A stretch of 64,000 nucleotides of DNA from an uncultured Gammaproteobacteria bacterium (GTDB lineage Bacteria; Patescibacteriota; Patescibacteriia; Magasanikbacterales; GWA2-37-8), in NCBI GenBank assembly GCA_964510885.1, contig CAZEDL010000004.1:3182-67181 (forward strand). Reading direction: 5' to 3'. The notes under the pieces were generated by a model. That model searched no databases and was not told where the DNA came from. It worked only from the letters and a program-made list of their open reading frames with translations. This document shows positions 7,357-44,956 of the stretch, piece after piece. The position numbers and the translations under genes were made by a program. Position 1 is the first letter of the stretch. The number at the start of each line of letters is the position of its first letter.

Positions 7357-7454
7357 ATTTCTCTTATTTAAGACCTTTTTTGAAAAACTACAACCATAGT
7401 AGCACACCTTGCTTTTTCTGTAAAAAATCGATAGGATACGATCATTTCCTAAAC

Positions 7455-7738: not shown

Positions 7739-7740
7739 CA

Positions 7741-9536: not shown

Positions 9537-9562
9537 AAAAAAATAATTATGGCGCTGGCACG

Positions 9563-10114: not shown

Positions 10115-10124
10115 ATAATTTTAG

Positions 10125-10646: not shown

Positions 10647-10668
10647 AGCCCTTTATTATTTGTCGTAA

Positions 10669-11100: not shown

Positions 11101-11233
11101 AAGTCTTAATCACTAAAAAACTAGTAGGCAACTAATTATTGAAAGAGAGAAATAGTTAAAATAATTATTTTTCTCTACCAACAAAAGTACCGCGAAGGGG
11201 AGAGTTGAAACTCTCCCCCACGATACGTATACA

Positions 11234-11668
11234 CTAGACAGGTTGAGTCGTAGCGCTTACCAAGCTGCTTACCACAAAGTTGGCAATAGCGTATGCTGAC
11301 AAAATAATCGCCAAACCAATGATACCGCTGAAAATCATTTTCTTAGCTTCACCAACTTTATCATCATTTCCACCCGCGGTCATCCAGGTAAAACCACCAA
11401 TCAAAATGATTACAACTGCGACGATACCAAGGAGACCCATGAGCACCTTGATAATGCGAGCAATAGTGATACGGATGTCAGTACTGGTGAGGCCGGTGTT
11501 GGCTCCGTATTGGATACCCAAGTCACTTTCGTTAATTGGCTTTACTGGGCCGCTGATGCCTGGCACCTGGTCGCCACCCTGGGCGAACGTCGCCACTGGC
11601 ACCGCCATACTGCCGATCATCATAGCTCCCATCGCGAAGCTGACTAAGAACTGTTTGAATCGTGTCAT
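11234..11668 (-). CDS. TrbC/VirB2-like pilin-family protein, paralog 6
   Basis: Start placed at MTRFKQ, preceded by RBS GGAGGTGAAGAT. Core ILIGGFTWMTAGGNDDKVGEAKKMIFSGIIGLAIILSAYAI. Confidence 0.6.
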   Translation of the reverse strand: MTRFKQFLVSFAMGAMMIGSMAVPVATFAQGGDQVPGISGPVKPINESDLGIQYGANTGLTSTDIRITIARIIKVLMGLLGIVAVVIILIGGFTWMTAGGNDDKVGEAKKMIFSGIIGLAIILSAYAIANFVVSSLVSATTQPV

Positions 11669-11765
11669 ATCTTCACCTCCTTCCCAGTAGAAACAAATTG
11701 TTTCATATGTGATGTTACAAAATAAACTGATCTGACCCCAGTATAACATACTGGCGCGAAACTTG

Positions 11766-12206
11766 TCACGAACCTTTGCTGAGAAAAACCAAATACTGAT
11801 CGAGCAAGAAATAACTAGCCAAAACTAGACCTAAGCCAATGGCTGCCCAGAGCATAGTCATAGCACCGCTGTGGACACGGTCGGGATTACCAAACGACAA
11901 TAACCACGAAGCCCCCCCTTTAATAAATACGATAAGGGCCACCGACCCAACAATTCCGAGCGCACCCTTTATGACGATGCCGAGGATAGTAGTCACTTCA
12001 ACCGGTCTCGCCCCATTTGCGCCTGGCGCCAATGGATTTTCTAAACATTGACGGTCTTTAGGGCAATCCTTATTTGCACCTGGTGTCTCGTCGCTAGTTT
12101 GAGCAAACACCGGGGCGGCCAACAAACCAACAGCAAGTGTTGCTAACAGCACCAAGAGCATCCATCGTCTAGAAAACTGCTGTGCCAGAGAAATCATATT
12201 AAACAA
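11766..12206 (-). CDS. TrbC/VirB2-like pilin-family protein, paralog 7
   Basis: The N-terminal region carries CPKDRQC. Core FIKGGASWLLSFGNPDRVHSGAMTMLWAAIGLGLVLASYFL. Confidence 0.55.
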   Translation of the reverse strand: MFNMISLAQQFSRRWMLLVLLATLAVGLLAAPVFAQTSDETPGANKDCPKDRQCLENPLAPGANGARPVEVTTILGIVIKGALGIVGSVALIVFIKGGASWLLSFGNPDRVHSGAMTMLWAAIGLGLVLASYFLLDQYLVFLSKGS

Positions 12207-12222
12207 CTGATAAAGATAAAAA

Positions 12223-13305
12223 TTATGACGCGCCGGTCAGCAATTGAAACACAAATCCAACTAGTACATAGCTCGCTAAAATAGCCACCACCCCAAGACT
12301 CGTCCATACCACCATTCTCTGGGCCTGCTCCACGCGCTCAGAATTTCCAGCCGCAGTCATCCAGAGCACACCGGCAACAATATATAATACCAGCGTAACA
12401 CCTCCGAGAATGGCCAGCGGCACCGAAATCAACCACCCAATCAAAGCCGCCCCTAGTTTCGAAGAATTACTATACGAATTAAACCGGCTCATCTGATTAA
12501 GCTCGGCCACTTGGTCCTGAATATCTTTCAGTGAACCGGGAGCATCTTCATCCTCACCCTCTGCCGCAGTTTTTTCCGGCGCCGGGAGCTTGCTAAAATC
12601 CATCAATGCGTCACAATCACTAATTATTTTGCCGCCTTCTTCACGGTCTTTCACGTCATACGCCTTGAGCCCTTCGCCGCAAATGCGCAGAGCTGGATCT
12701 TTTTGATTACCATTAAAGCCTTTAACAAATTCCGAATTATAGCGGCGGCGCCAATCTACATGGCGTTCGCAATCAGAGGGTACACCATTAGGTTTATCCG
12801 ATGGTTTACAGCAGCAAAACGGCGGATTATTAGCTACAGCCGGCTTCATCGTGTACTTACTTTTCATCTCTTCAAGCAAATCATCTTCTTGTTTTTGCAC
12901 GACCCCTTCATATTTTTCTTTGGCAATTTTTTTGGATTCGACCGTACAGGTTTTCCCATCATAATTCAGAACCATTTTACCCCCCAAATAAAATAACCGA
13001 TTTGGATATTCATCAAAACGATAAAAACCTGCCCACGAGAACAGCGGGATATCGAACTTTTTTTTATAAACGTCAATTTTATACGTTTTGTTAACTTTAA
13101 AAAAACCCGGATTAATGCCGACCATTACTGTACAAACACCAAGACACTCCAGCGACTCAGGATCATTGCAGGCATCACCCATGCCAACCAACTCAGGGGC
13201 ATACAATTCTTCAAACTGCGCCGCTGAAGCCGCGACAGGAAGCAGCTGAATAGTAGCCGCAATAAGCATCAAAGCAATAGCGTGCCAGTTAAAAAATCTT
13301 CGCAT
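12223..13305 (-). CDS. Cys-rich extracytoplasmic domain fused to C-terminal TrbC/VirB2-like pilin module, paralog 8
   Basis: N-terminal domain of about 270 aa with roughly 12 Cys (CNDPESLECLGVC, PPFCCCKPSDKPNGVPSDCERH). C-terminal LVLYIVAGVLWMTAAGNSERVEQAQRMVVWTSLGVVAILASYVL. Confidence 0.55.
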   Translation of the reverse strand: MRRFFNWHAIALMLIAATIQLLPVAASAAQFEELYAPELVGMGDACNDPESLECLGVCTVMVGINPGFFKVNKTYKIDVYKKKFDIPLFSWAGFYRFDEYPNRLFYLGGKMVLNYDGKTCTVESKKIAKEKYEGVVQKQEDDLLEEMKSKYTMKPAVANNPPFCCCKPSDKPNGVPSDCERHVDWRRRYNSEFVKGFNGNQKDPALRICGEGLKAYDVKDREEGGKIISDCDALMDFSKLPAPEKTAAEGEDEDAPGSLKDIQDQVAELNQMSRFNSYSNSSKLGAALIGWLISVPLAILGGVTLVLYIVAGVLWMTAAGNSERVEQAQRMVVWTSLGVVAILASYVLVGFVFQLLTGAS

Positions 13306-13324
13306 AACACTAAATAAAAGCCAT

Positions 13325-14035
13325 TTATTTAAGGATAAACTCAGGATCAACACCAACAGCCGAGGCCAAAAACTTAATCAAAATATAACCACCAAACGCA
13401 ATCAATAGCCCAATCACCACCGCTACCAAAATATCTTTGGCCTGGGAAATTTTTTCTTCATTGCCTTGGGATAAAATCAATATAAAACCACCATACACAA
13501 ACATCACGAGCGATACTCCACCAATAATAGAAAATAAATACTGCGTAATTTTAATAGCCAGCGTAATAAAAATATTAACACTGCGACACTGGTCAGTTAA
13601 CTCATTTTGTAAAGCACAATCCGGAATTAATCGGCTGCGGATAATTGTCGATGGCTGACTAGCGCCCCCCTCAGCACCCTCGGTAGTGCCAAGCAACTCT
13701 TTAAGACGAGTGGTTTTTTCCTGCTCCCAACCTTTCAGCGCTGCCTGACAAATATCATCGGTCTGTGCATAGTTACAATCAAAAAATCGCTTACTAGTGG
13801 CGGTGTTGGAATTTTTTTCCTTCGTACAGTCGCTCTGAGCGGCCACCGTCGAACACTGAGCAATAAACTGAGCCTGGTCTTTCACCGTTTCAGCCGTCAA
13901 TTTAGTCAAATTTTCAAAACAAAAACAGCTGCCAGCTGCTACTGCCGCTGGAGCTGGGAAAAACAAACCACCGCAGCCAGCAGCAAATAATAATCCGAAT
14001 ATAAAGAGGCGAATCTGTGAAGCCATAGTCTTCAT
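13325..14035 (-). CDS. Cys-rich N-terminal domain fused to C-terminal TrbC/VirB2-like pilin module, paralog 9
   Basis: Signal peptide, then about 10 Cys (SCFCFENL, QCSTVAAQSDCTKEK, DCNYAQTDDICQ, DCALQNELTDQC). C-terminal LVMFVYGGFILILSQGNEEKISQAKDILVAVVIGLLIAFGGYIL. Confidence 0.55.
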   Translation of the reverse strand: MKTMASQIRLFIFGLLFAAGCGGLFFPAPAAVAAGSCFCFENLTKLTAETVKDQAQFIAQCSTVAAQSDCTKEKNSNTATSKRFFDCNYAQTDDICQAALKGWEQEKTTRLKELLGTTEGAEGGASQPSTIIRSRLIPDCALQNELTDQCRSVNIFITLAIKITQYLFSIIGGVSLVMFVYGGFILILSQGNEEKISQAKDILVAVVIGLLIAFGGYILIKFLASAVGVDPEFILK

Positions 14036-15435
14036 AAGGTTTGCTGAATTTTAGCGGCCGCCCGATTTAAAATATCTTGACGCCACTCAAGTAGTCGATT
14101 GGGATCAGGTGGCGCTTGCAGCCATTCATGAATCATATCACGAATAGCCCGGCTAGCGGAATCATAATTTTGCCCGCGGTACCAATTATCAGCGATCAAA
14201 AGCTGACCGACAAATGGCGCCAAATCTGGATCTTCAGATTGTTTTTTAATATTAGACCTGAGTGCCGTCGGGCGCTTTGTTTCAGTGAGATAGGTTTCAG
14301 TCGCGCTCGAATGAGTCAAATAATTAATGAATGCCCACGCCGCCGACTGTTTTGTCGATTTAAGCGTCACCGCATCTACATAATAGTTGGCCACATTCAC
14401 CGGGCGGGCCGGATCGAGCTGTAACAAGGGCAAAACCCCTACATTTAATTGTGGGGCGCGCGCCCTGATGACCGGCAAATGATAGCTGTACCCAAAGAAA
14501 AAAGCCGCCGACCCGCTCGTAAACGCATCAAGAGCAGGGCCCATTGACTCATTCCACGTATAGGTGTCACGGGTCGGATTGGCAAAATCAGTATAAAAAT
14601 TCATTACCGTCATAGCCGGAGTTTCTTCACCATTCCGGTTGGCAGTAAGATTAAAAATTGGCTGATTGCCAGTTTTCGATATAAAGCTAACACCGCTCTG
14701 TTCGAACAACAAGTAAATCAAATCGTCGCTTGCGGTAATGTTATTTCCGGTGCCAAAAGCCGCTCCGGCCTGGGTGATTTTGTTGGCGTCTTTGTCGTAC
14801 TTAGAGATTTTTTTTACCGCCGCCTGGAATTCTTCCCATGTTTTTGGTGGCTCCGCCACTCCCGCCCGATCCAGCAAATCCTTATTATAATACAAAGCCA
14901 TGGTATCAAGAGATAGTGGCAGGCCGTACACTTTTCCATCCATCACCACATCTTTCTTAACTGTCTGCACATATTCCCGGTCAACCTGGAGGGCATTAGG
15001 CAGCGGCCGGGCTACAGTCGTAATCGTAGTTTTAGATCCAATCGTTCCTTCGGTAGTCACCATCGTCGTATCCGGAACGCTCTCTGGCATCGGGGCCAGC
15101 TTCGTTTTAAGTGCACGCATGCTGCGGTTAGACACCGACACAATATCCGGCCCACGATCTTCGGCCAACGCCTCTAAGAGGCGTGGATAAAACTCATCCG
15201 CGCGCAATTGGCGCAAATTGACGGTTATATACGGGCGGTTAGACCGGTAAGTAGCGATCATCTTCTGCAAGGCATCGACATCATCAAATACGGTCCAATA
15301 CTCAAGCGTTATCGGTTTGGTGGCCGCTTGTTCAGTCCCAGACAGGCCTTTACAGCCAAAACCTGTCAACAATAAACAAAAAAATATCGAGCCAAATAAA
15401 ATACGCGCGCGACTAAGCTGCTTTTTCGATACCAT
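14032..15435 (-). CDS. ABC transporter extracellular solute-binding lipoprotein (family 1, sugar-type)
   Basis: Lipobox LLTGFGC. The 467-aa product has periplasmic-binding-fold length and composition. No permease gene is adjacent. Confidence 0.6.
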   Translation of the reverse strand: MVSKKQLSRARILFGSIFFCLLLTGFGCKGLSGTEQAATKPITLEYWTVFDDVDALQKMIATYRSNRPYITVNLRQLRADEFYPRLLEALAEDRGPDIVSVSNRSMRALKTKLAPMPESVPDTTMVTTEGTIGSKTTITTVARPLPNALQVDREYVQTVKKDVVMDGKVYGLPLSLDTMALYYNKDLLDRAGVAEPPKTWEEFQAAVKKISKYDKDANKITQAGAAFGTGNNITASDDLIYLLFEQSGVSFISKTGNQPIFNLTANRNGEETPAMTVMNFYTDFANPTRDTYTWNESMGPALDAFTSGSAAFFFGYSYHLPVIRARAPQLNVGVLPLLQLDPARPVNVANYYVDAVTLKSTKQSAAWAFINYLTHSSATETYLTETKRPTALRSNIKKQSEDPDLAPFVGQLLIADNWYRGQNYDSASRAIRDMIHEWLQAPPDPNRLLEWRQDILNRAAAKIQQTL

Positions 15436-17842: not shown

Positions 17843-17924
17843 GCCCAGGTGGTGAAATTGGTAGACACTCAGGACTTAAAATCCTGCGGCTTCGGCCATG
17901 CGGGTTCGATTCCCGCCCTGGGCA
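17843..17924 (+). tRNA. tRNA-Leu (anticodon TAA), class II
   Basis: Acceptor GCCCAGG/CCTGGGC, anticodon loop CTTAAAA, long variable arm CGGCTTCGGCCATG. Confidence 0.85.
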
Positions 17925-17925
17925 C

Positions 17926-29303: not shown

Positions 29304-29318
29304 TATATATTTATTCTG

Positions 29319-29391
29319 AGCGGCAGACCGGATTCGAACCGGCGACCTCTTCCTTGGCAAGGAAGCGTTCTACCAACTGAACTACTACCGC
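29319..29391 (-). tRNA. tRNA-Gly (anticodon GCC)
   Basis: Reverse complement GCGGTAG...CTTCC-TTGCCAA-GGAAG...GGTTCGAATCC...CTGCCGC-T. Confidence 0.85.
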
Positions 29392-29573
29392 GTGTTAATT
29401 TTTGGCAACAAATTTAAGGCTGGTCACAGTATAGCCGATCTGGTTTCCCTTGTCAATCTAGTGCAATTTCGCCTGTTCATTTCTAGCGGACTATTCCTTT
29501 TGGGGCCGAAAAACGACACCACAGCTCAACCAAAAATATCCCGCTGGCAGCGGGATATTTTTATTAAGAAGTA

Positions 29574-30392
29574 CTATTTGTTGAGAGCGGCGCGAGTTTT
29601 AGCACCGACATTAATTTCCACTATTTTCTTTGCCTTCTGATATGCTTTCACTGCTGCTACGGTAGTTGGCCCGTAGACCCCATTTGGCTTAACTGTTTTT
29701 GAGAAGTAGCCAAGTCCATGCAGCCTTCTTTGTAATTCGAGAATATCTCTAGCAAGCACAGTGCCCCGAGAGCTGGGACTCAAATTACGATTGAATTTAT
29801 AAAGAACAGGCGGTTTAACAACTGGAGTAGTCGGAACAGTCGGAGTTGTCGGAGTTGTCACCGGGATTGGATTAACTACCGGAGCTGGACTTGGTGTTGG
29901 GCTAGGAGTTGGGGAAGGGGGCAAAAGTGGACCGCCTCCGCCTCCATCATTTCGTGAAGGTGCTGAGCCGCCTGCTCCGCCTGGATCAGGCAAGCTACAG
30001 GTTGCGGTCGGAGTGACACGGATAGTATGAGAACTGTCTGTCTGTGAAGCAGGGTTGGTACAAGTAATGAGAACGGACGAATTGTTAGCGCCACAGGTAG
30101 TAGTGACCTGCGAGCAGGTGCTGTCAAAAGAAGTTCTAAAACCGCTTTTGTCAGTTGATTGAAGTAAAATACGAGAATTATCCGTCACCGTAAAATCGAT
30201 CGAATCTTCGTTAACTCGAAACGACTCTACTTTACTGCTCGAATCTATCGTATAGTACTTCTCTAAACTCGGCACATAGATCGATACTGTAGCATCACCC
30301 ATAGTCACAGTATCAAAGGCCGCCTGTGCGCCGCTAACCGGTAACAATAGTAATGCCCCAAGCACAATCACATATTGTAGTTTACTTTTCAT
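29574..30392 (-). CDS. secreted protein with C-terminal peptidoglycan-binding domain (PG_binding_1)
   Basis: Signal peptide, Gly/Pro/Thr-rich linker, then DILELQRRLHGLGYFSKTVKPNGVYGPTTVAAVKAYQ. Confidence 0.6.
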   Translation of the reverse strand: MKSKLQYVIVLGALLLLPVSGAQAAFDTVTMGDATVSIYVPSLEKYYTIDSSSKVESFRVNEDSIDFTVTDNSRILLQSTDKSGFRTSFDSTCSQVTTTCGANNSSVLITCTNPASQTDSSHTIRVTPTATCSLPDPGGAGGSAPSRNDGGGGGPLLPPSPTPSPTPSPAPVVNPIPVTTPTTPTVPTTPVVKPPVLYKFNRNLSPSSRGTVLARDILELQRRLHGLGYFSKTVKPNGVYGPTTVAAVKAYQKAKKIVEINVGAKTRAALNK

Positions 30393-30463
30393 AGGGTATG
30401 TGATGGACATCCTTTTTATCAAGCTAATTGAACAAAAGGACTGTCTAAATTAAAGGGGCTATT

Positions 30464-31672
30464 TTAATATTTCCAAACACTTACTCTCCAAGTACCATCG
30501 ATAGATCCAGGGTTGTCATTATCTCCACAAACTCGGATTGTTACAGTATTATTATCAGTCACAGCGGCAGACCATGAAGCATTGGCCAAATCAGCGTCTG
30601 CCTCAGCGGTACCAGGCGAAGCCACTGCTAAATCACCAACCTCTGCGCCAATTACGGTAACATCATTTGCAGCGTCACAATTATTGGCCCCAGCGTCAAA
30701 AGCAAGGGAACCAGTTAACACGCTAAAATGCTTCAGAACAGTAGTACCCGCGCCACCGATTTTAAGACCAGCATTAAATGTAGCAACACCTCCTACTACC
30801 ATAGTGCTGCTCACCGATGCCGTACCATCAAGCGCCAAGCGCTGAGCATTGATCGAACCATTGGCATAACTCACATCAAAGCTAGTAAGAGTTTGGCCTA
30901 CAGCCAAATAGTTGCTGGTAGTGGCGTAGGTAGAAGAAGCATAGTAAACTTTGTCGCTTCCGGCAAAAACCGTACCTGACGCATAAACATCCTTGAAAGC
31001 CTGGGTATACGAACCGATATCTGCAACATTATGCGCATCTGCCAGCACATTGCCGCGGAAAGTAACTGTACCGCCGACAATAAGCGTGCTACTCACGGCG
31101 ACTCCGGCATCAACAGATAACCCACCGGTTACATTTAAACTGCCATTGTCATAGCTGGCATTAAAACTTTGCGGCACGCCACCAACACTGATATATTTAC
31201 TACTTGTTACAATCGTAGAAGTGACCGAAGTCAGAGTGCCGGCGCCGCTTAAATTAAGCGCTGTTCCAAACATGGTGCCAGATGAATAAACATTGTTAAA
31301 CGCTTTGGTATAAGAACCAAGATTTGGAACCCCGTGGGCATCAGCAAGAAGATTCCCGCGGAAGGTTGCCGCTCCGCCTACAATGAGTGTGCTGCTTACC
31401 GAAGCAGCCCCATCCACGGATAATGGGCCGCTAGTATTCAGGCTGCCATTAGCATAACTAACATTGTGACTTACTGGCGAGGCACCGACGCTTAAATAAC
31501 CAGTATTAGTGGCGCTTGAAAACGACACACCCCCCGTCACCGATAAAGTCCCACCAATGCTGACATTGTGGCCGACGGTGGTAGCTGCCATTGCGGCAGG
31601 GGTACCAGCCAAGCACGCTACAACTGTAGTCAGTGACAGCAAGAGCCCGTAAGCTTTCTTTCCTCTTAGCAT
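30464..31672 (-). CDS. secreted beta-rich surface protein with three internal repeats of about 85 aa
   Basis: Repeat units Y[LI]SVG..P.S.N.SY.NGSLN..G.LSVD...VSSTLIVGG..TFRGN.LADAH.V...GSYT.AF..VY.SGT occur three times. Confidence 0.55.
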   Translation of the reverse strand: MLRGKKAYGLLLSLTTVVACLAGTPAAMAATTVGHNVSIGGTLSVTGGVSFSSATNTGYLSVGASPVSHNVSYANGSLNTSGPLSVDGAASVSSTLIVGGAATFRGNLLADAHGVPNLGSYTKAFNNVYSSGTMFGTALNLSGAGTLTSVTSTIVTSSKYISVGGVPQSFNASYDNGSLNVTGGLSVDAGVAVSSTLIVGGTVTFRGNVLADAHNVADIGSYTQAFKDVYASGTVFAGSDKVYYASSTYATTSNYLAVGQTLTSFDVSYANGSINAQRLALDGTASVSSTMVVGGVATFNAGLKIGGAGTTVLKHFSVLTGSLAFDAGANNCDAANDVTVIGAEVGDLAVASPGTAEADADLANASWSAAVTDNNTVTIRVCGDNDNPGSIDGTWRVSVWKY

Positions 31673-31738
31673 ATACATTGAGTTAATAAACATCTTTTTT
31701 ATCTCTGATTATTCTTGAGACAAAAGGTCTAAATAAAA

Positions 31739-32212
31739 TTATTTTAAATTTCCACCGCCAGCAGGCGAAAAATGCATCACATCGAGCACTAAATCAACAA
31801 TCGGATCATACAAAATTGCCTGCGTCGGATAAATAACTACGCGATCACCTTTTTTGGCAAACTGGTAAAAAATGGGATTTTCTTTTCGCAAAGCGTCGAC
31901 ATCAACGATTGTAGTCACAGTTACCCGCCCGGTCGGTAAATAAATATGCTTACCAAGTTTTTTTATCAAATCGTTAATGGAAGCATCTTTCCCAGCCACT
32001 TCTACCAGCTGCTGATTTAATTTATTTGTGCCAGTAGTTAGCAATTGTTCCTTGGCAATTGGAACAGGGGTCTGCCGCACGTCATGTTTATTTTTAAAAT
32101 CAAAGGCAAAAAATGCCCCAATTAATATGATTAAAAATGATAAAGCAAGTAACCAGAGAAAAAAAGTTTTGCTCGCTTGTGTTTTATCTGATACCGATTT
32201 TTTTTTAAACAT
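31739..32212 (-). CDS. membrane-anchored hypothetical protein
   Basis: N-terminal TM helix followed by a 130-aa domain of about 130 residues. Confidence 0.45.
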   Translation of the reverse strand: MFKKKSVSDKTQASKTFFLWLLALSFLIILIGAFFAFDFKNKHDVRQTPVPIAKEQLLTTGTNKLNQQLVEVAGKDASINDLIKKLGKHIYLPTGRVTVTTIVDVDALRKENPIFYQFAKKGDRVVIYPTQAILYDPIVDLVLDVMHFSPAGGGNLK

Positions 32213-32405
32213 GTTTGCTGCTATAAAAAAAGAGCTGGTAATGTATTTTAAAATACAGGCTATTTACTTATTGTAAATCTAATTATACAGTTTTTTTCTT
32301 TTTCTTTAAAGAAAATGTCAATAGAATGCAGTGTGGACAACTGAAAAAGCGTAGTACCCGTTGCCAAAACCAGACAAATAAAATATTCTATAGTCACTAA
32401 ATCGT

Positions 32406-33425
32406 ATGTCACAGCTCAAGCACCTCATTGTCATTCCACTTCTTGTCATCGGGATTTCCTATCTTACCATTAAACCTCTCCCGGTCCACGCGGAAACCGC
32501 TACCAGCACCCTGGAAGCTGGTTTTGCCAGCGGCTTTCGCTATTCTAAAAGCCCGCTTGTCACAAGCAATACCATCATCCGTATTTACGTCACCTTACAA
32601 AACCAATCTACCGCCGATATTCTTGGCACGGTACGCATTTTTGACAATGACCAGCCAATTGGCGACATACCATTCTCGATTGTAGCCAATCGCCTCATAG
32701 AAGTCTGGATCGATTGGACAGCCACCCCTGGTCCGCATTCTATTCGCGCCACTATTATTGACGCTAGAATCTCAAAAGCCGGTGAGTCGCCCGTAGCTAT
32801 CGCCCTTAGCATCCCAAACTCAAGTATCGACCTACAAACAGTGCCACTACCTGCACCGCCAACACCCACCTCCACCCCGACTGAATCGTCAAGCCGCCCA
32901 ACATCTGACCAGCCCGACCCGCCAGATACCGTCGGCGCTGCATCCACGACTTCGACCGACACTAAAAATGATCCTGCTGTCACAATTACCACTTTACTCG
33001 CAGCCGCTTTTGAAAAATTGCTGGCACTTGGTAAATCTAATACTACTTCTTCCACTAATTCTCAAACAGCGACCGTTTCGAGCAGCGATCAAAGCCAGCC
33101 GGATTCCATCGGGCAGCAGTTCAACGCCATTTTAAAGAGTCTAACCTCCGATCTAACCACCAAAAATAACAGTTTAAAAGCTGCTATTACGAGCGGCCAA
33201 GGCACCGAGCCGATCTTAACCGAACCTATCAACGCTCTCGAAGACAAAACTTTTATCAAAATCCCTGATAACAAAAAGCCAACTAAACAGCTGGTATATA
33301 GTTGGCTCATTTCCATTGCCATTACCATCCTGAATACGTGGTGGCTGATGGTAGTTATCTTTCTTATTATTCTGCGCGCTTTATACAAACTCTGGAAAGC
33401 GGTGCGCGAACAAGATGACGATTAG
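32406..33425 (+). CDS. Ser/Thr/Pro-rich surface protein with signal peptide and C-terminal TM anchor
   Basis: Signal peptide, PAPPTPTSTPTESSSRPTSDQPDPPDTVGAASTTSTD low-complexity region, and a C-terminal hydrophobic helix. Confidence 0.5.
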   Translation: MSQLKHLIVIPLLVIGISYLTIKPLPVHAETATSTLEAGFASGFRYSKSPLVTSNTIIRIYVTLQNQSTADILGTVRIFDNDQPIGDIPFSIVANRLIEVWIDWTATPGPHSIRATIIDARISKAGESPVAIALSIPNSSIDLQTVPLPAPPTPTSTPTESSSRPTSDQPDPPDTVGAASTTSTDTKNDPAVTITTLLAAAFEKLLALGKSNTTSSTNSQTATVSSSDQSQPDSIGQQFNAILKSLTSDLTTKNNSLKAAITSGQGTEPILTEPINALEDKTFIKIPDNKKPTKQLVYSWLISIAITILNTWWLMVVIFLIILRALYKLWKAVREQDDD

Positions 33426-33433
33426 GTAAATCA

Positions 33434-33907
33434 CTAATAAGCGATCACACTGATAGCCAGTGCTGGATTAAGGTGGTCATGAAAAAAGTAGGTACCGGCT
33501 TGTTTGAACGTCACTTTATAACCTTCATCAGCGCCAAAGGCTCCTGATTCTACTCCAGTGCCAGGGTCGGTATGACCATGATTTCGATCATAATCATCGC
33601 CTTGGCCTTCGGCGATATTATGAGTTTTGCCATCTTTACTATTAAACTGGACTACGCCACCAACCGGAATCAAAACCGTGTTTGGCTCGGCCCGATCAGG
33701 CAGCAAATCAACCGTTTGAAATAGCGGACGGGTCGGAACCGTAGCGGATGGCTGCAACTTAGCATCTGCCGCACTCGGGCGCTGGTAGGCATGTCTTGCC
33801 CCCACAAACCCTACCCCCATGGCCAACAAAAGGAGCGCCAGATATACTCCTCTTTTTTTTATTAGATCAGTATAGTCAGTCACAAACAATAGCAGCTTAT
33901 TCGACAA
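33434..33907 (-). CDS. cupredoxin-like protein lacking the Cys ligand (FHDHLNP in place of HCEPHPYM)
   Basis: TM anchor. C-terminal GTYFFHDHLNPALAISV aligns with the copper-site loop of the neighbouring cupredoxin, but Cys is replaced by Asp. Confidence 0.4.
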   Translation of the reverse strand: MSNKLLLFVTDYTDLIKKRGVYLALLLLAMGVGFVGARHAYQRPSAADAKLQPSATVPTRPLFQTVDLLPDRAEPNTVLIPVGGVVQFNSKDGKTHNIAEGQGDDYDRNHGHTDPGTGVESGAFGADEGYKVTFKQAGTYFFHDHLNPALAISVIAY

Positions 33908-34283
33908 CTTCTACCGTTCCTTTCATATACGGATGCGGTTCACAGTGGTATGGGAAAACTCCCACAGTGTCAAAGGTATAGCTATACGTTTCGTTCTGTC
34001 CGAAAAAGGCGCTGGCTGGGCCGGTGCCACTATCTACCGTCACCGTGTGTTTGGCCACATCTTTGTTGGTCCAGGTCACAGTCGTGCCTTTCTTCACCGT
34101 AAGGGTAGCTGGGCCATAGGCATACTTTTCAATCGTCACCGCATTCGCTGCCTGAGGAGCGGTGGCAGTCGGCGCGCCATCCTCTGGCTGCGTAGTCGCC
34201 GTCGGAGCAGTTGCGCCACAGCCGCTCATCACGAGCATCAAACCAAACATTGCAACCACACTTAAGCTTTTAGCATTCATCAT
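33897..34283 (-). CDS. blue-copper (plastocyanin/amicyanin-like cupredoxin) lipoprotein
   Basis: Lipobox LMSGC. Type-1 copper ligands occur at AKHTVTV ... YHCEPHPYMKGTV. Confidence 0.65.
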   Translation of the reverse strand: MMNAKSLSVVAMFGLMLVMSGCGATAPTATTQPEDGAPTATAPQAANAVTIEKYAYGPATLTVKKGTTVTWTNKDVAKHTVTVDSGTGPASAFFGQNETYSYTFDTVGVFPYHCEPHPYMKGTVEVVE

Positions 34284-34389
34284 ATAAAAAAATAACTATA
34301 AATTAACAAGATGATAATACCACACCCATAAAAAAATTAACAACTAAAAACCTCCCCATTTACGAGGAGGTTTAGCGCTCATTCAGAGC

Positions 34390-35115
34390 TTAGAATTTGT
34401 CCGGGTTCTGTTTTACGATCGCTCCAGCAATTGCATCAGCGATCTTGCCGATCTGAGCTTCGGCTTTGACCTGGTTGTCATACGAACCGGCATAGTCCTT
34501 TGCGCCATAGGTATCAACGGCCGCTTTCAGGAGTCCGACGTGTTCGTTAACCAGCGTCTTCACCGCTTCGCGCGGCAAATTTGGGTTGGCCTGCGAGAAG
34601 AAATCCGAGATCGCATCGACATATCCGCCGAGGTTAGCTACGGCTTTGTCCATGCCAGCTTTATCGCCAGCCTTGGCGGCTACCGTGTAATCAACGAAAA
34701 AGCCGATGTGGCTGCGCCAGATAGCCAAAAATTTAGTGCCGGCTTCTTTGCCGTATACGCTGCCGACCGCTTCAGATAATTGAACCGAATTAGCATCAAG
34801 AGCTTTGGCTGCCGCTTCAAAATCAGCCCGGCCATCAAATCCAGCGCGCACCGCCGTGGCTGCCAAGCTAACATGCTGGCGTTCCAAGGCGTTCAAAAGA
34901 ACGCGCAGATCAGCTGCTGCCGTATCCGTCACCGGAGCCGGTTTGGCCATCATAGTATCCCCCATTTTTTCCATTCCCATTTTATCCATTGCCATGTCAT
35001 GGCCCATATCTTTTTTCCCGGCCGTCAGAGTGGCCGCGCCATAACCGACCACTAGGCCGATTACTACCATTACTACTCCGACCATTACGGCCGAACCGCT
35101 TTTGTTAGACATCAT
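34390..35115 (-). CDS. membrane-anchored protein with Met-rich (MxxM-type, copper-binding-like) N-terminal segment
   Basis: GHDMAMDKMGMEKMGDTMM precedes an alpha-helical domain. The gene is adjacent to the cupredoxin genes and the stretch is visibly GC-richer. Confidence 0.45.
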   Translation of the reverse strand: MMSNKSGSAVMVGVVMVVIGLVVGYGAATLTAGKKDMGHDMAMDKMGMEKMGDTMMAKPAPVTDTAAADLRVLLNALERQHVSLAATAVRAGFDGRADFEAAAKALDANSVQLSEAVGSVYGKEAGTKFLAIWRSHIGFFVDYTVAAKAGDKAGMDKAVANLGGYVDAISDFFSQANPNLPREAVKTLVNEHVGLLKAAVDTYGAKDYAGSYDNQVKAEAQIGKIADAIAGAIVKQNPDKF

Positions 35116-35222
35116 GTTTGCATCTTGCATAGGTGCGAAAAAATTAAACAAGTTAATTAACAATCTTCGACCTTTCTTAAGGTGCTTTTAGTATAGCAAA
35201 GCAAGAAAAAAAATGCCACCCT

Positions 35223-35843
35223 CTAAGCCCTCTTCATTTGAGCCAAAAAATAGCGATGCCACACAATGGTGGTAAGCTCCGGATGAAAGGCCAGAGCCAG
35301 ATAATACTGTCCTTTCGACCGCTGTTCCGCCGCTACAATTTCAGCATTATGTGAAGCGAGGGCCGCAACCCCAGATTCGATCCGTACAAACCGTGGTGCG
35401 CGAATAAACACCGCCTGGCACTCCCCAAGCATAGTGGCGAGCGACGTTTCAAACGAGGCAGCCTGGCGACCATAGGCATTGCGATCCACCGTGATATCCA
35501 TTAATTCGAACGTCCGCTGATCAGCCGTTCTATGCAGCACCTTTTTAGCGAGCAAAATAGCCCCCGCGCAGGTCCCCATGATAGCCGGAATTTTTTTCAT
35601 GGCAGCGAACATATCTTCACGTTCTAATAATTTGTGCAGCACCGTACTTTCCCCGCCCGGCACAATAAGGCCGTCGAGCTCTGCTAAATCTTGCTTATTT
35701 CTGACCTCGATAATCTCTATCCGTAATCCTAAATCAACTGCCGCTGCCATCAGTGCCTGCACGTGCTCAACCACTCCGCCTTGCAGACTCAAAACACCTA
35801 TCTTTAAAAATGTCGCACTGTTTTTATGTTTTAATGTTTTCAT
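35223..35843 (-). CDS. pdxT: pyridoxal 5'-phosphate synthase glutaminase subunit
   Basis: LKIGVLSLQGGVVEHVQAL...GLIVPGGESTV...MGTCAGAILLAKKV. Confidence 0.85.
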   Translation of the reverse strand: MKTLKHKNSATFLKIGVLSLQGGVVEHVQALMAAAVDLGLRIEIIEVRNKQDLAELDGLIVPGGESTVLHKLLEREDMFAAMKKIPAIMGTCAGAILLAKKVLHRTADQRTFELMDITVDRNAYGRQAASFETSLATMLGECQAVFIRAPRFVRIESGVAALASHNAEIVAAEQRSKGQYYLALAFHPELTTIVWHRYFLAQMKRA

Positions 35844-35852
35844 GCTTTAAAG

Positions 35853-36743
35853 TTACACTCCCCTTTCCGCCATTTTCACTGCCAAAGTTCTAATCTCCTG
35901 CCCCGGCATCGCCTGTCCTAACCCCTCACTCGCCAGCGCAATTTTTTTAGCATCCCTAAAATGCGCCACTGCATCCACCACTGCCTTGGCCCGCACCGCC
36001 GGATCACTGCTCTTAAAAATTCCCGACCCCACAAATACTCCATCCACACCCAGCTGCATACACAGTGCTGCATCAGCCGGCGTAGCAATCCCGCCTGCTG
36101 CAAAATTCACCACTGGCAGCCTGCCAAGTTTGGCGGTAGTCAGCACCAGTTCATACGGCACTCGCATGGCAATCGCCATTTTTTTGAGCGTCGCCATTTT
36201 TTTCTTATGCAATAACTCTTGAATTTCAATCACACCCTGATTCATCGCCCGAATATGGCGAATCGCTTCCACGATATTCCCACTCCCGGCTTCGCCCTTG
36301 GTGCGAATCATCGCTGCCCCTTCGTGTATCCGGCGGAGCGCCTCACCAAGATTACGCGCCCCACACACAAACGGTGCCGTAAACGGTGTTTTATTAATAT
36401 GAAACTCTTCATCAGCCGGCGTCAGCACCTCACTTTCATCAATAAAATCAAGCTCGAGCGCTTCAAGCACCTGCGCTTCTACAAAATGTCCGATGCGACA
36501 TTTTGCCATCACCGGAATCGTCACCGTGCGCTGAATCTGTTTAATCATCGCGGGATCGCTCATCCGCGCCACACCGCCTTCAGCCCGGATATCAGCCGGA
36601 ATTTTTTCAAGCGCCATCACCGCCACCGCCCCAGCAGCTTCGGCGATCTTGGCTTGCTCGCTGGTCGTGACATCCATAATCACGCCACCCTTCAGCATTT
36701 GAGCCAAACCGGATTTAACCGTAAAAGTTCCTGTCTGTTTCAT
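35853..36743 (-). CDS. pdxS: pyridoxal 5'-phosphate synthase lyase subunit
   Basis: [45 protein letters not shown]...[16 protein letters not shown]. Confidence 0.9.
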
Positions 36744-36949
36744 AGAGTAAGATCGAAATAAAATATCTTGCCGCTCGGGCGAAAAAGCCTAGATATATAA
36801 CACCAAAAAAATCGCTTTGTCTATTGATTAAAATCGTAAAACTATCTTGACAAAATTATAATTCTACGTTATTATTGCCTGTTTTCACTATACCTAAAAC
36901 GAGACCCTAAACGCGAGAACGGTGTATTGACAACACCAAAGGAGACCCT

Positions 36950-37204
36950 ATGGCTCAGTACCTACGACTTACGATGCTGCTCTTTGTATTTATCAACGGC
37001 TGTGCCAGCGCACGACCAGATCGGCTGCGGATCTGTCGCCTGGTAGACCCCAACTGCGGACTGACCACGCTTGAAGTGGTCACAGTCAAGGTCAACGGCT
37101 GCGCGAAGGCCACCGAGATTCACGAAGTTGGGCCCGCACGCATCGTGCCCGGTGGCAGCCGCCGGATCACCGGCTCATGCCACGTCATCGGCGACACGCA
37201 ATAG
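36950..37204 (+). CDS. small Cys-containing lipoprotein (hypothetical)
   Basis: Lipobox FINGC. 84 aa, GC-rich. Confidence 0.35.
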   Translation: MAQYLRLTMLLFVFINGCASARPDRLRICRLVDPNCGLTTLEVVTVKVNGCAKATEIHEVGPARIVPGGSRRITGSCHVIGDTQ

Positions 37205-37236
37205 CTCGCCCCTCCCACCCAAAGGATGGAGGAGGG

Positions 37237-37312
37237 CGCTCGCTGTCCCGTTCTCCTCCATCCCTATTCACTATTTCACTGTTGGAATAATGAATAGAGA
37301 GGAGAACGGCTA
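37237..37312. repeat. nested inverted repeat (long hairpin)
   Basis: CCGTTCTCCTCcatcc-CTATTCACTAtttcactgttggaaTAATGAATAG-aGAGGAGAACGG. Confidence 0.5.
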
Positions 37313-37421
37313 AAAACCAGGCACTATCTGCCTGTTTTTTAATTAAAAACTAAGAATCCTTTAAGATATTGACCAACCTCAACATTTTTGTTAGAGTAGC
37401 GGACGACTTTTTAAAAAGTAC

Positions 37422-37493
37422 GCCGCGGTAGCTCAGTGGTAGAGCGCAGCCCTGAAGAGGCTGGCGTCGTCAGTTCGATTCTGACCCGCGGCA
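37422..37493 (+). tRNA. tRNA-Phe (anticodon GAA)
   Basis: Acceptor GCCGCGG/CCGCGGC, anticodon loop CTGAAGA, T-loop GTTCGATTC. Confidence 0.85.
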
Positions 37494-37494
37494 C

Positions 37495-37620
37495 GCGCCC
37501 CCGAATCGAACGGGGAAGGCTTGGGAATCGGGAGGTTCCCACCTCTGCCGGGAAGAGCACACAAGAGGGCGGAAGCCCTTTGGTGAGAGGTTCTGATTCG
37601 CATCGGAACCAATTTTGCTT
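37495..37620 (+). other. tRNA-trailer conserved structured element, copy 2 (after tRNA-Phe)
   Basis: Begins GCGCCCCCGAATCGAAC, where GAATCGAAC is the reverse complement of the tRNA-Phe T-loop. Core GGGGAAGG-GGGAATC[GGGA]GGTTCCC-...-GGGC[GGAA]GCCC. It is followed at 37621-37634 by a duplicate of the tRNA 3' end CTGACCCGCGGCAC. Confidence 0.7.
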
Positions 37621-37820
37621 CTGACCCGCGGCACAAGACGAGTGAGTTGATTGTAATTAGGGAGTGCAATTAGTAGTTTGGATAAAATAAAAGAGCGGAT
37701 TCACATTCCTCTGTCCAAATTATTAACTACTAAATACAAACTACTCAATTACGGGGTATACTATGGTATATCCCTCAACGCTCGGAAAACCCAAATAAAT
37801 TTGGTTTTTCCTCACTAATT

Positions 37821-37894
37821 CGGGGTATGGCTCAATTGGCTAGAGCGCCTGGTTTGGGACCAGGAGGTTGTGGGTTCAAGTCCCACTACCCCGA
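37821..37894 (+). tRNA. tRNA-Pro (anticodon TGG)
   Basis: Acceptor CGGGGTA/TACCCCG, anticodon loop TTTGGGA, T-loop GGTTCAAGTCC. Confidence 0.85.
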
Positions 37895-37896
37895 CA

Positions 37897-37928
37897 AATA
37901 AAATATCCGGCAACAAGCCGGTTATTTT
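37897..37928 (+). terminator. intrinsic terminator after tRNA-Pro
   Basis: AAAATATCCGGC-AACAA-GCCGGTTATTTT. Confidence 0.6.
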
Positions 37929-37970
37929 AATTGACCCCGGCCAAGTATCCAGGTATCGTAGAAAATACCT

Positions 37971-38600
37971 ATGGAAAAACCTTCTTACCAACCAAGCCCA
38001 GTCCGTCGGACGGCCGAACGAGCCGGCCAAATTTTGGCCGCTGCTGCCGCCTTGTCTGGAGGGACAGAAAACTTGGCCCGAGCCGACGAAAAAGCTGCCG
38101 CACCAGCACCAGCTGAAGCGGCGCAAACTGAAAAGCCTAAAGCCAATGATACCGAGGACACACCCGAGCCCGCCCCCAATAAACTGATCCGTGCTGCCCG
38201 TATTGTCGGTGAAGGTATATTAGAATTTAAAAATGCCATCGGTTCAGATGGAAAAATAGTTAAAAAAACTATCGACGATGACTATGCCGAAGATGGTGGC
38301 AAATATGTGATTCATATTCAACCATACGTCTTCACTAATCCAGCCTTTAAAGATAGATTCCTCAAAGAGGGCGGGCAAGCATCGACCACCGAAGTCGCGG
38401 TGTATGTAACCAAAAAAATATTCAACTTGGTCGAAGAAGGTCGATGGGTAAAATTCCAAATGGAAAAATTTGGCCCCAAAGACCCAACCCCGGAGGTACA
38501 ACGATTTTGGCTCACCCCCGCAGGCCACGAGCCACCACCGGCCATCGACATTACAAGCAGTAAACAAGGCCCAAAAGACAGTCGTGCCCAAAAAAAATGA
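37971..38600 (+). CDS. hypothetical protein (Ala/Pro/Glu-rich N-terminus)
   Basis: 209-aa ORF followed by a strong terminator. Confidence 0.45.
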   Translation: MEKPSYQPSPVRRTAERAGQILAAAAALSGGTENLARADEKAAAPAPAEAAQTEKPKANDTEDTPEPAPNKLIRAARIVGEGILEFKNAIGSDGKIVKKTIDDDYAEDGGKYVIHIQPYVFTNPAFKDRFLKEGGQASTTEVAVYVTKKIFNLVEEGRWVKFQMEKFGPKDPTPEVQRFWLTPAGHEPPPAIDITSSKQGPKDSRAQKK

Positions 38601-38640
38601 ACCTTCCGAAATTCCGGAACACCTAAAATTATTCACAAAT

Positions 38641-38675
38641 AAAAAATCCCCCGGCGCATGGTCGGGGGATTTTTT
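38641..38675. terminator. bidirectional intrinsic terminator
   Basis: AAAAAATCCCCCG-GCGCATGGT-CGGGGGATTTTTT. Confidence 0.7.
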
Positions 38676-38711
38676 CTCTTCTAAGAGAACTCTCCTAAAA
38701 TGTTAAACCTC

Positions 38712-39746
38712 CTACCAATCCAGCGTTCCACCCACTTTATATTCCGTCACGCGCGTTTCAAAGAAATTCTTTTCTTTACTCAAATCAATCGCTTCACTCA
38801 TCCACGGGAATGGATTCGGCGTGTTGTACTGAGCCGGCAATCCAATACGAGCCAAGCGGCGATCAGCAATGTGCTCAATGTACTGCTTGAACCCTTCCGC
38901 ATTCATCCCAAAGATCCCTTTCGGGAACACTTCCTGGGCAAACGTATACTCAAGCACCACTGCCTTCTTCACCAGGTCAATAATATGCTGCTGGAACTCA
39001 GCCGTCCATAATTCTGGCTGCTCTTCTTTAATAGTGTTGATCATGTTGATACCGAAATTCAGATGCTGCGATTCGTCACGCATGATGTACTGAATCTGTT
39101 CGGCGCTCCCAATCATTTTATTCAAACGCTGGAATCCAAACATCACCGCAAACGAACTGTAAAAGAAAATTCCTTCCATAATCAGCGAAAACACACACAT
39201 GTTCTCAAGGAACTTCTGATCATTGGCAAAGGTGCCAGTCTTAAAAGTCGGGCTGAAGATACCATCATTGAAACCGAGGATAAATTCATCTTTGTTATAG
39301 ATAGCATCTACCTCTCGATACATGTTGAAGATCTCACTTTCATCCATGCCCAGGCTCTCCACAATATACTGATAGGCATGCGTATGAATAGCTTCTTCAT
39401 ATCCCTGGCGCAACAGATACATGCGACATTCCGGACTCGTCACATGTTTGTAGAACGCGAGCACCACATTATTAGCCGCCATCGAGTCAGCCGTGCTGAA
39501 AAACCCGAGCACCGTTTTCAGCGCTTTACGTTCATCTTCACTCAAAAAGGTTGGTGATTTCCATTGCTCGATATCTTTCTGCATGCTGATTTCAGTCGGT
39601 AGCCAATGATTGGCATTACCAGCATTATACGCATCCCAGGCAAAGATATGTTTCATTGGATAGAGCTGAATCACATCCGCATCCTCCCCATTGATCACGC
39701 GCCGCTTGTTGATATCAACGCGCTGACTGGTTTTTTGAATAGGCAT
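38712..39746 (-). CDS. nrdB: class I ribonucleotide reductase beta (R2) subunit
   Basis: Di-iron ligand regions EEAIHTHAYQYIV and ...MRDESQHLNFG. Ferritin-like fold. Confidence 0.9.
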   Translation of the reverse strand: MPIQKTSQRVDINKRRVINGEDADVIQLYPMKHIFAWDAYNAGNANHWLPTEISMQKDIEQWKSPTFLSEDERKALKTVLGFFSTADSMAANNVVLAFYKHVTSPECRMYLLRQGYEEAIHTHAYQYIVESLGMDESEIFNMYREVDAIYNKDEFILGFNDGIFSPTFKTGTFANDQKFLENMCVFSLIMEGIFFYSSFAVMFGFQRLNKMIGSAEQIQYIMRDESQHLNFGINMINTIKEEQPELWTAEFQQHIIDLVKKAVVLEYTFAQEVFPKGIFGMNAEGFKQYIEHIADRRLARIGLPAQYNTPNPFPWMSEAIDLSKEKNFFETRVTEYKVGGTLDW

Positions 39747-43975: not shown

Positions 43976-44620
43976 ATGAATGATTTTAAAACCAGAGATC
44001 AACTGGCAGTCGCCGCTAGTGGAGCTGGCCAAGAACACGACCCTGAAGAGATGAGCCCGCTTGAAAAACAGCTCTACGGCAAAACTCTAGCTGAAATTCA
44101 AAACGCCCTAGGGCCAGCCGGAAGTATTGGTAAAAATGAAATTTTTGTCGAAACGTATGGGGCAAACGGCAAATTTGAAGCCGCCATCCTGGCGATTGCC
44201 GAAGCGGTGGCTGCCAAAAAACAAGGGCTAGTTCCCGGACCAAAATTTGTGAGCCAATTTTCTGAGCTCGACCTCGAATTTCGTGAAGTGATTGGCGAGG
44301 CCCTGGTTCAGGAACTCGACAATGATCAAATTCTCGAGGGGAAAAACCTAGCCGAACTAACCGACGCCCTCCTGAAGCTTAACGCTCTGCAAAAAGCCCT
44401 GCCTGCTTCCAGAAAGATGCTAAACCAAGGCACGCCGATTGACTTCAAATTCCTACTCGAAAATTACGTAAGAAATATTCCTGGTCTAAAAGCTGAAATC
44501 TCTAATCAAGACCACCTAAACAACATGGCCTACTCGCATCTCCCCCAAATCTTTGGTCTCCGATCTGCCGCCGAAAATCTCGCAGCAGACACTGCCATAT
44601 CTCTTGATAAAGCAGCCTAA
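43976..44620 (+). CDS. hypothetical protein
   Basis: 214-aa ORF. I recognised no domain. Confidence 0.45.
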   Translation: MNDFKTRDQLAVAASGAGQEHDPEEMSPLEKQLYGKTLAEIQNALGPAGSIGKNEIFVETYGANGKFEAAILAIAEAVAAKKQGLVPGPKFVSQFSELDLEFREVIGEALVQELDNDQILEGKNLAELTDALLKLNALQKALPASRKMLNQGTPIDFKFLLENYVRNIPGLKAEISNQDHLNNMAYSHLPQIFGLRSAAENLAADTAISLDKAA

Positions 44621-44683
44621 GAAAAGGCAACAAAAAAACAAGCTTAATAAGAAGCTTGTTTTTTTGTATACGAGTTATCTGTG

Positions 44684-44700
44684 TGGACCAATGGGGACTC
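44684..44700 (-). repeat. 17-nt direct duplicate of the tRNA-Ala 3' end (distal to the element)
   Basis: TGGACCAATGGGGACTC is identical to 44810-44826. Confidence 0.7.
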
Positions 44701-44809
44701 TCAGTCGCTACGCTCCCACAAAAGGGCTTCCGCCCTCTCGTGCGCTCTCCTCAAAAAAGGTGGAAACCTCTCGATTTCCAAACCTTCCCCGTTCGAGTCC
44801 ATATACTAG
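44701..44809 (-). other. tRNA-trailer conserved structured element, copy 3 (after tRNA-Ala, minus strand)
   Basis: Minus-strand sequence: CTAGTATATGGACTCGAACGGGGAAGGTTTGGAAATC[GAGA]GGTTTCCACC...GGGC[GGAA]GCCCTTTTGTGGGAGCGTAGCGACTGA. GGACTCGAAC is the reverse complement of the tRNA-Ala T-loop. Confidence 0.7.
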
Positions 44810-44882
44810 TGGACCAATGGGGACTCGAACCCCAAACCTTCGCCTTGCAAAGGCGTTGCTCTACCAATTGAGCTATTGGCCC
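44810..44882 (-). tRNA. tRNA-Ala (anticodon TGC) with G3:U70
   Basis: Reverse complement GGGCCAA...ACGCC-TTTGCAA-GGCGA...GGTTCGAGTCC...TTGGTCC-A. The G3:U70 wobble is the Ala identity element. Confidence 0.85.
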
Positions 44883-44956
44883 GTCAATTTATACGGACAC
44901 ATCGTACCAGGTCGTACCATAAAAGTCAATCTAGTGGTATAATTAAGCCAGACTTC

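Follow-up and report, generated by a model that had tools for sequence, protein, structure and literature searches.

A candidate class of small, strand-specific insertions without genes behind tRNA genes of Patescibacteria, described from a tRNA-Ala locus

Within the 64-kb stretch of DNA analyzed here (the window), a tRNA-Ala(TGC) gene without encoded CCA occupies positions 44810-44882 of the minus strand, on which ARAGORN and Rfam agree (start 44809/44810). A promoter-like site (TTGACT, 17 nt, TG-TACGAT; 44901-44929, minus strand), found by consensus scan only, lies directly 5' of this gene. Most tRNA genes of the window likewise do not encode CCA (161-243, 7455-7527, 17843-17925, the 29318-39391 region, and 37821-37895). 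The window encodes an MgtC protein and a glycosyltransferase whose nearest homologues are 43 to 64% identical and are labeled Patescibacteria or Magasanikbacteria.

The 3' side of tRNA-Ala is organized into a series of features that are all read on the minus strand. A repeat search returned an exact 18-nt direct repeat, GTGGACCAATGGGGACTC, at 44683-44700 and 44809-44826. Its tRNA-proximal copy (X1; 44809-44826) equals tRNA nt 57-73 plus 1 nt and thus covers the 3' part of the T-loop, the 3' T-stem, the 3' acceptor strand, and the discriminator, so that the repeat stops at the discriminator base plus one C. Behind a spacer of 8 nt (44801-44808) follows the segment GGACTCGAAC (44791-44800), which is the reverse complement of tRNA-Ala nt 53-62 and is referred to here as anti-T. 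The repeat search recovered the same relationship as a 10-nt inverted repeat of 100% complementarity, GTTCGAGTCC at 44791-44800 against GGACTCGAAC at 44821-44830, the latter being the T-loop and 3' T-stem of tRNA-Ala. The earlier note had described complementarity to the T-arm at 10 of 10 positions and a 17-nt duplication of the tRNA 3' end; the former was recovered in full, and of the latter the duplication holds, while its length has to be corrected to 18 nt.

Anti-T is followed by a structured, conserved core of 90 nt (44701-44790), which includes GGGGAAGG (44783-44790), hairpin H1 with a GNRA loop (44757-44786), hairpin H2 of the form GGGC-GGAA-GCCC (44717-44742), and the 3' motif GAGCGTAGCGACTGA (44701-44715). 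The downstream repeat copy (X2; 44683-44700) comes next and is preceded by GA where tRNA nt 55-56 are TC. Two partners are available to anti-T of the Ala copy, either the T-arm of the tRNA (10 bp) or X2, with which it would form a closing stem (P1). The insert measures 126 nt, counted from the start of one repeat copy to the start of the other, and contains no conserved ORF. A strong intrinsic terminator with a 16-bp stem and A and T runs on both sides (44630-44667, minus strand) begins 15 nt past X2; it closes the unit of tRNA-Ala and element and is shared with the convergent gene at 43976-44620. Only the Ala copy has CCTTTTTTGA after H1 (44761-44780), which was flagged as terminator-like and might stop some transcripts within the element.

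The core motif AGAGGGCGGAAGCCCTTT was detected at exactly three sites in the window (7802, 37564, and 44721; 0.06 expected by chance), each just 3' of a tRNA and on the strand of that tRNA, and a second core motif marked the identical three sites (0.00 expected by chance). Likewise, a covariance model built from the family recovered three copies in the window and none further. Copy 1 lies behind tRNA-His on the plus strand (7741-7858, with a truncated second copy to 7883), with X1 at 7722-7740, anti-T at 7742-7749, H1 at 7754-7782, H2 at 7798-7823, and X2 at 7840-7858. Its anti-T reads ATTGAACC, and the T-loop of tRNA-His is TTCAA. Directly past X2, the first 25 nt of the element restart (CATTGAACCGGGGAAAGTTTGGGAA, 3 mismatches; 7859-7883) and then break off; this truncated, more diverged, older copy points to repeated insertion at tRNA-His. 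Copy 2, behind tRNA-Phe and also on the plus strand (37495-37634), has X1 at 37479-37494, anti-T (GAATCGAAC) at 37503-37511, H1 at 37516-37544, H2 at 37560-37585, and X2 at 37619-37634. It contains an additional hairpin (37589-37610, GGTTCTGATTCGCATCGGAACC), inside which a T-loop-like GTTC(T)GATTC pairs with anti-T, and between this hairpin and the 16-nt duplicate there is a second T-loop copy, mutated in part. The duplicates of the three window copies are 16 to 19 nt long, and each is derived from its own tRNA. Because C or CA comes after the discriminator base, the duplications cannot be delimited on the right more closely than to within 1 to 2 nt.

The Arg, Leu-TAA, Met, Gly-GCC, and Pro tRNAs of the window are followed by no 3'-end duplicate and no anti-T, and the same was true of Leu-TAG in the 160 nt visible downstream of it. 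This agrees with the distribution given in the earlier note, in which the element follows its tRNA on either genomic strand, is lacking at five other tRNAs (Arg, Leu-TAA, Met, Gly, and Pro), and is not a universal trailer; tRNA-His and tRNA-Phe on the plus strand and tRNA-Ala on the minus strand are the carriers among nine tRNAs in the window.

All tRNAs in the CPR loci examined were screened for a downstream duplicate of their own 3' end, which yielded elements with unrelated cores but the same arrangement of anti-T and duplicate. The layout of the class is a tRNA, a spacer (sometimes with a terminator), anti-T, a folded core, and a second copy of tRNA nt 57-73. Across the class, anti-T is the reverse complement of the neighboring tRNA from nt 53/54 to nt 62-73, and the folded cores measure 70 to 130 nt. 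The duplicate begins at nt 57 (±1 to 2 nt) and finishes at nt 73 plus 1 to 2 nt in most copies; its right edge is variable, extending to +7 at Trp and +25 at His. The two bases before X2 are GA in the family of the window copies (family A) and AG or CG in the others, always unlike the TC of the T-loop, and X2 is therefore not a complete T-loop or full target. Altogether, the elements are approximately 110 to 190 nt long, lack ORFs, and occur at at least nine different tRNAs. A repeat from the T-loop to the 3' end encloses the insert and leaves the tRNA intact at Ala and in 12 other copies, and the carrier tRNAs score 57 to 72 bits in Rfam.

A second family (family B) was found behind tRNA-Glu (L040, L130) and tRNA-Trp (L134), and tRNA-Tyr genes are followed by further, other cores; at the L130 tRNA-Tyr, anti-T is perfectly complementary to nt 54-73 over 20 nt. 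Complementarity to the T-arm is specific to the neighboring tRNA across the whole class. The exact anti-T run against the cognate tRNA (6 to 20 nt) equaled or exceeded that against every noncognate tRNA in 12 of 13 elements; it was strictly the longest in 4 of the 13, with few ties in most others. Approximately 14 of 46 distinct tRNA genes in the examined CPR loci carry an element, as do 5 of 20 in four syntenic Moranbacteria loci whose selection did not depend on the element. A small non-CPR control of 11 tRNAs gave one match, which was a tandem gene. A separate hairpin, "family C" (GGAAGCCAA...TTGGCTTCC, then GG(A/G)TGAGAA and a short copy of a tRNA 3' end), recurs behind tRNA-Tyr and the L030 tRNA, where it lies farther from the tRNA than other elements do (L030, 3590-3660; L040, 3090-3200; L134, 12680-12740; L137, 12750-12800).

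When 185,579 species genomes were scanned by pattern, five true relatives of the window core were identified. One is located behind tRNA-Gly(TCC) in a Magasanikbacteria metagenome-assembled genome (MAG) (L035), two behind tRNA-Thr(GGT) in Moranbacteria-type MAGs (L028 and L040), and one behind an intron-containing tRNA (L030); the fifth (L036) has no intact upstream tRNA and stands after a protein gene and its terminator. Two family A copies without an intact upstream tRNA were observed in total (L120, 860-1350; L036, 4930-5420), and the sequence 5' of the L120 copy is only a degenerate look-alike of a tRNA 3' end. The L030 carrier tRNA (3900-4500, minus strand) escapes ARAGORN and Rfam because it is split by a group I-like intron, which carries an ORF for an HNH endonuclease. 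Group I introns in Patescibacteria tRNAs are reported in a 2026 paper (PMC13011429), with which the L030 intron is consistent. A metagenome scan with the family A pattern gave 83 matches, of which 2 were real and both duplicated genome matches; one Logan contig (L126) breaks off within X2. Core identity was 82 to 91% between genomes versus 81 to 89% within the window, while host proteins were only approximately 60% identical, a pattern that speaks for spread of the element. The 11 to 19% divergence among the three window copies argues against a recent burst here.

The tRNA-sense strand is the folding strand. Minimum free energies of the sense and antisense strands of five elements were −51/−34, −57/−48.5, −55/−44, −62/−52, and −50/−37 kcal/mol. 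The family A fold consists of P1 (anti-T:X2), a long H1 with a GNRA loop, H2 (GGGC-GGAA-GCCC), and a variable third hairpin. Its stems contain G-U pairs and one compensatory change from A-U to G-C. Among the elements, compensatory and G-U changes are located in H1, H2, P2, and P3. Family B folds into a three-way junction with changes on both sides in 8 of 32 pairs among only three sequences, and its P1 pairs covary with tRNA identity (Glu versus Trp copies). Furthermore, wobble-compatible substitutions in P1 (L035 and the L040 Glu copy) are tolerable on the sense strand only. As the element lies between the promoter-like site 5' of the tRNA and a terminator-like hairpin, both consensus matches only, it is expected to be cotranscribed with the tRNA.

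Such an arrangement raises the question of whether the element is a trailer RNA that benefits the host. Anti-T and the duplicate could steer pre-tRNA folding, 3' processing, or stability by pairing with the T-arm or the 5' acceptor strand; alternatively, the core could itself be a small RNA, transcribed from the tRNA promoter and released via P1. The enclosure of tRNA and element by promoter-like and terminator-like signals and the covarying, sense-strand-specific fold are in line with this proposal. Likewise, the GAA(C) of anti-T pairs solely with the TTC of the real T-loop and not with X2, even in family B, and X2 is perfectly conserved in the three window copies, the cores of which differ by 11 to 19%. 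However, orthologous tRNAs of relatives function without the element, and only about one-third of tRNAs carry it. A terminator separates tRNA and element in Moranbacteria, the L036 and L120 elements lack an intact upstream tRNA, and some copies are decaying, with a disrupted H1 and degenerate anti-T in the L134 Thr copy and two mismatches in X2 of the L040 Thr copy. A trailer function is therefore possible but, in our view, unlikely.

Comparison with orthologous empty sites in syntenic loci shows that the element is an insertion. The element is absent from the tRNA-Ala gene adjoining MgtC in the relatives L139, L141, and L142, where a terminator follows directly, and the tRNA-His gene adjoining the MGDG-synthase (glycosyltransferase) gene is empty in L148, again with a terminator directly after it. 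L148 shares the gene order PNPase, NYN, S15, and pilin genes with the window. At tRNA-Thr(GGT), which is identical at 75 of 75 positions, an empty allele (L137) could be compared with a filled allele (L134/L135) for a related copy. The filled allele is 185 nt longer; its flank past X2 matches the empty-site flank at 71 of 90 positions, while the flank after X1 does not align with it. In addition, five tRNAs are patchily occupied among Moranbacteria with 70 to 83% identical RpsB. The occurrence of syntenic Ala, His, and Thr tRNAs without the element supports the claim of the earlier note that it is an insertion and not a general trailer. In the window, at least seven small genes with T4SS_pilin domains (6985-7407 and 9090-14035) flank the tRNA-Arg/His locus, and this array is syntenic in L148.

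Distal extra copies were truncated or degenerate in every case listed (His, 7859-7883; the third copy in L030; the second copy at the L040 tRNA-Tyr), which suggests that new insertions arise next to the intact tRNA. The tRNA-Trp locus of L134 is an exception, as the flank after X1, not X2, matches the empty site (32 of 41 positions), with which X2 has no more than 7 additional nt in common; these flanks do not fit a simple one-step insertion. Between this tRNA-Trp element and tRNA-Glu, L134 has a Pyr_redox_2 gene (13750-15310), and the two tRNAs are adjacent in all other syntenic loci. Behind tRNA-Thr(TGT) of L127 (12661-12770), a pseudo 3' half was observed that includes tRNA nt 44-58 and has a hairpin in place of the remaining T-arm; its acceptor end, GGTGGCTCA, is a different one and agrees with the tRNA in related genomes. 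This pseudo 3' half is a sign of replacement of the 3' part of a tRNA.

The direct repeat from the T-loop to the 3' end is also the classic footprint of tRNA-targeting integrases. The elements could thus be attR-proximal scars of larger integrase-bearing prophages or plasmids that entered tRNA genes and were later deleted, and other debris is indeed present at tRNA loci, such as the L127 pseudo 3' half. Nevertheless, at least 13 copies are equally compact and complete and never include a gene fragment, anti-T always forms the left boundary, and the cores are conserved with covariation. The three core motifs gave chance matches only in 2.9 million viral contigs. Deletion scars are, on this evidence, quite improbable.

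Several known identities were considered and discarded. Rfam at the gathering threshold, applied to the window and six loci, returned tRNAs alone, and in E-value mode the three element types gave only weak generic hairpin matches. A coding element was rejected: an antisense frame is open in most family A copies, yet it has no conserved start and runs into tRNA antisense, and the substitutions are stem compensatory rather than concentrated at third codon positions. A tRNA-like origin of the core was suggested by a 21-nt, 81% match between H1 and the variable-loop/T-arm region of tRNA-Ala; as this match was not reproduced in the His and Phe copies and the tRNA model misses the core, it was taken as chance. 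Hammerhead, hepatitis delta virus (HDV)-like, twister, and K-turn/box C/D motifs did not fit in an informal comparison by eye with their consensus sequences. A group I or group II intron, which would interrupt the gene and have a catalytic core of at least 200 nt or a domain V, was dismissed because the approximately 90-nt core follows a complete tRNA and matched no intron model. TIGR-Tas dual-guide arrays consist of tandem 36-nt units with an adjacent Tas protein, unlike the element. Finally, the sole inverted repeat is target derived and different at every tRNA, and the 16- to 19-nt duplication has a right edge varying from +1 to +25 nt and no fixed length, neither of which fits a MITE.

Full-text literature searches, including the accessible parts of PMC13011429 and of a 2023 paper on tRNA gene fragments, recovered no published description of the element. 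Copy 3, at tRNA-Ala, accordingly belongs to an apparently undescribed class of small, strand-specific, ORF-less insertions behind Patescibacteria tRNA genes.

The interpretation that we favor, and to which we assign about an even chance, is that the element is nonautonomous and mobile and that it enters tRNA genes in the form of a folded single strand, integrating site specifically at their T-loop/3' end. The T-loop-to-end repeat, the intact tRNA, and the tandem remnants together form a footprint of tRNA gene integration, and precedents for folded attachment sites lead us to prefer entry of a folded strand. The folded single strand would enter the T-loop/3' end of an intact tRNA gene, with the stem formed by anti-T and the duplicate mimicking the target or base pairing with it. 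Strand exchange at or just after position 56/57 would then link the tRNA body to the 3' end carried by the element, so that the tRNA stays intact and its displaced original 3' end remains as the downstream repeat. The recombinase would act in trans; no integrase, transposase, or reverse transcriptase was found in or beside any copy or among the approximately 60 ORFs of the window, and neither an excised nor a circular form was observed. Candidates are a tyrosine recombinase that recognizes a folded att site, comparable to CTXphi attP(+) or integron attC, or alternatively an HUH/Y1 enzyme, as in IS200/IS605 miniature elements. One possibility for the rematching of anti-T upon a change of tRNA is quasipalindrome correction against the adjacent tRNA.

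Folded-strand integration shares features with several known systems. Direct repeats from the T-loop to the tRNA 3' end are typical of tRNA-targeting integrases of the T-loop sublocation class, reportedly described by Williams in 2002 (Nucleic Acids Res). Like members of that tyrosine integrase class, the element has a repeat of this extent, leaves the tRNA intact, and shows tandem accretion with older remnants in distal positions. However, those elements are kilobases long, encode their own integrase, and use one tRNA each, whereas here approximately 110 to 190 nt without an ORF occur at at least nine tRNAs and carry an inverted target copy and a conserved folded core.

CTXphi attP(+) and integron attC are folded single-strand attachment sites, reportedly described in 2005 by Val et al. 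and Bouvier et al. The element resembles them in its inverted, target-like arms approximately 60 to 140 nt apart, its one-strand stem, and a mismatch beside the exchange point, as well as in the order of inverted arm, loop, and hybrid site that is seen after integration. Indeed, P1 (anti-T:X2), a sense-strand bias, and the mismatch at nt 55-56 are attC-type features and are present, the mismatch in all copies. In contrast, attP(+) and attC target dif or attI and are served by XerCD or IntI, whereas here tRNA genes are the targets and the loop consists of a conserved, folded core. Judged by eye, the present sequences (TYGAAC/GTGARA) approach the attC consensus RYYYAAC/GTTRRRY without fully matching it.

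Miniature derivatives of IS200/IS605 elements (PATEs; Deinococcus SRE) are small and hairpin rich, and their target is read by base pairing beside a hairpin. The present elements are likewise small, ORF-less, strand specific, and hairpin rich and lack terminal inverted repeats. Insertion 3' of a short motif may be a further likeness: if the element is taken to begin at nt 56/57, GTTC immediately precedes every copy, and the GAAC of anti-T would read the GTTC of the T-loop. PATEs depend on a Y1 (TnpA) transposase in the same genome, and no TnpA gene was found within the 64 kb of the window. Unlike the element, PATEs and SRE use guides of 4 to 5 nt and carry no copy of the flanking target. The element is best grouped with tRNA-targeted integrative elements as a miniature, hairpin-bearing form, and we see a substantial chance that it takes a new, base-pairing-guided route. 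More tentatively, and with a chance well short of even, the element may be a mobile element of a hitherto unrecognized kind, a gene-less folded nucleic acid of approximately 100 nt that chooses a specific tRNA gene by base pairing with its T-loop/3' end, with anti-T and the duplicate as a two-strand guide, and re-creates the tRNA; this could include an RNA stage started from the tRNA promoter and bounded by tRNA-processing enzymes.

A route through RNA has also to be weighed. RNase Z could cut after nt 73 of both repeats, and the RNA, possibly circular, could be reverse transcribed in trans, with the cDNA recombining within the 17-nt homology; R2, SINEs, and hybrid cDNAs of the Neurospora retroplasmid are analogues. 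The right edge of the repeat does coincide with the tRNA 3' end (nt 73 plus 1 to 2 nt) in most copies, cotranscription with the tRNA is expected, and copying of slightly more than one unit of a circle would leave the left edge constant at nt 57 and the right edge variable, as is seen. The element also resembles R2/SINE-type elements in its location within a conserved RNA gene, its expected use of a host promoter, and the presence of sequence taken from the target at the RNA 3' end. In contrast to R2/SINE-type elements, the host is a bacterium, no reverse transcriptase was found in the window, and there is no A-tail. Neither a CCA nor a poly(A) signature is present, and no tRNA-like fold, as RNase Z would require for cutting at X2, is evident. 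We consider mobility via RNA to have a distinctly low probability.

The length and position of X2 could likewise be those of a 17-nt 3' guide attached to a core scaffold, which would direct an RNA-guided nuclease or transposase to tRNA genes. The T-loop GTTC, universal beside the target, would serve as the adjacent motif, and the guide locus would be spared because TC has consistently been lost ahead of X2. Yet the intact neighboring tRNA is itself a perfect target, no TnpB, Cas12, or IscB-like gene was found within the 64 kb of the window, Rfam gave no omega-RNA or crRNA family, and anti-T is left unexplained. Guide RNA function is accordingly very improbable.

Integration into tRNA genes is the commonest entry of mobile DNA into prokaryotic genomes, and to our knowledge every known case needs an integrase encoded by the element. 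If the favored folded-strand interpretation is true, the elements described here would be a minimal form of tRNA gene integration, approximately 100 nt long and gene-less, with a target-matched hairpin that changes with the tRNA. They are abundant, occupying about one-fourth to one-third of sampled tRNA genes in CPR bacteria, which are genome reduced and otherwise have few mobile elements. In tRNA annotation and assembly, confusion can arise from anti-T segments and from the second copies of tRNA 3' ends. If the element is instead a functional trailer, it would add a new layer to tRNA biology in CPR bacteria. If it moves as inferred, it would offer a compact rule, perhaps programmable, by which base pairing selects the site, and a marker of gene flow among uncultured CPR lineages.
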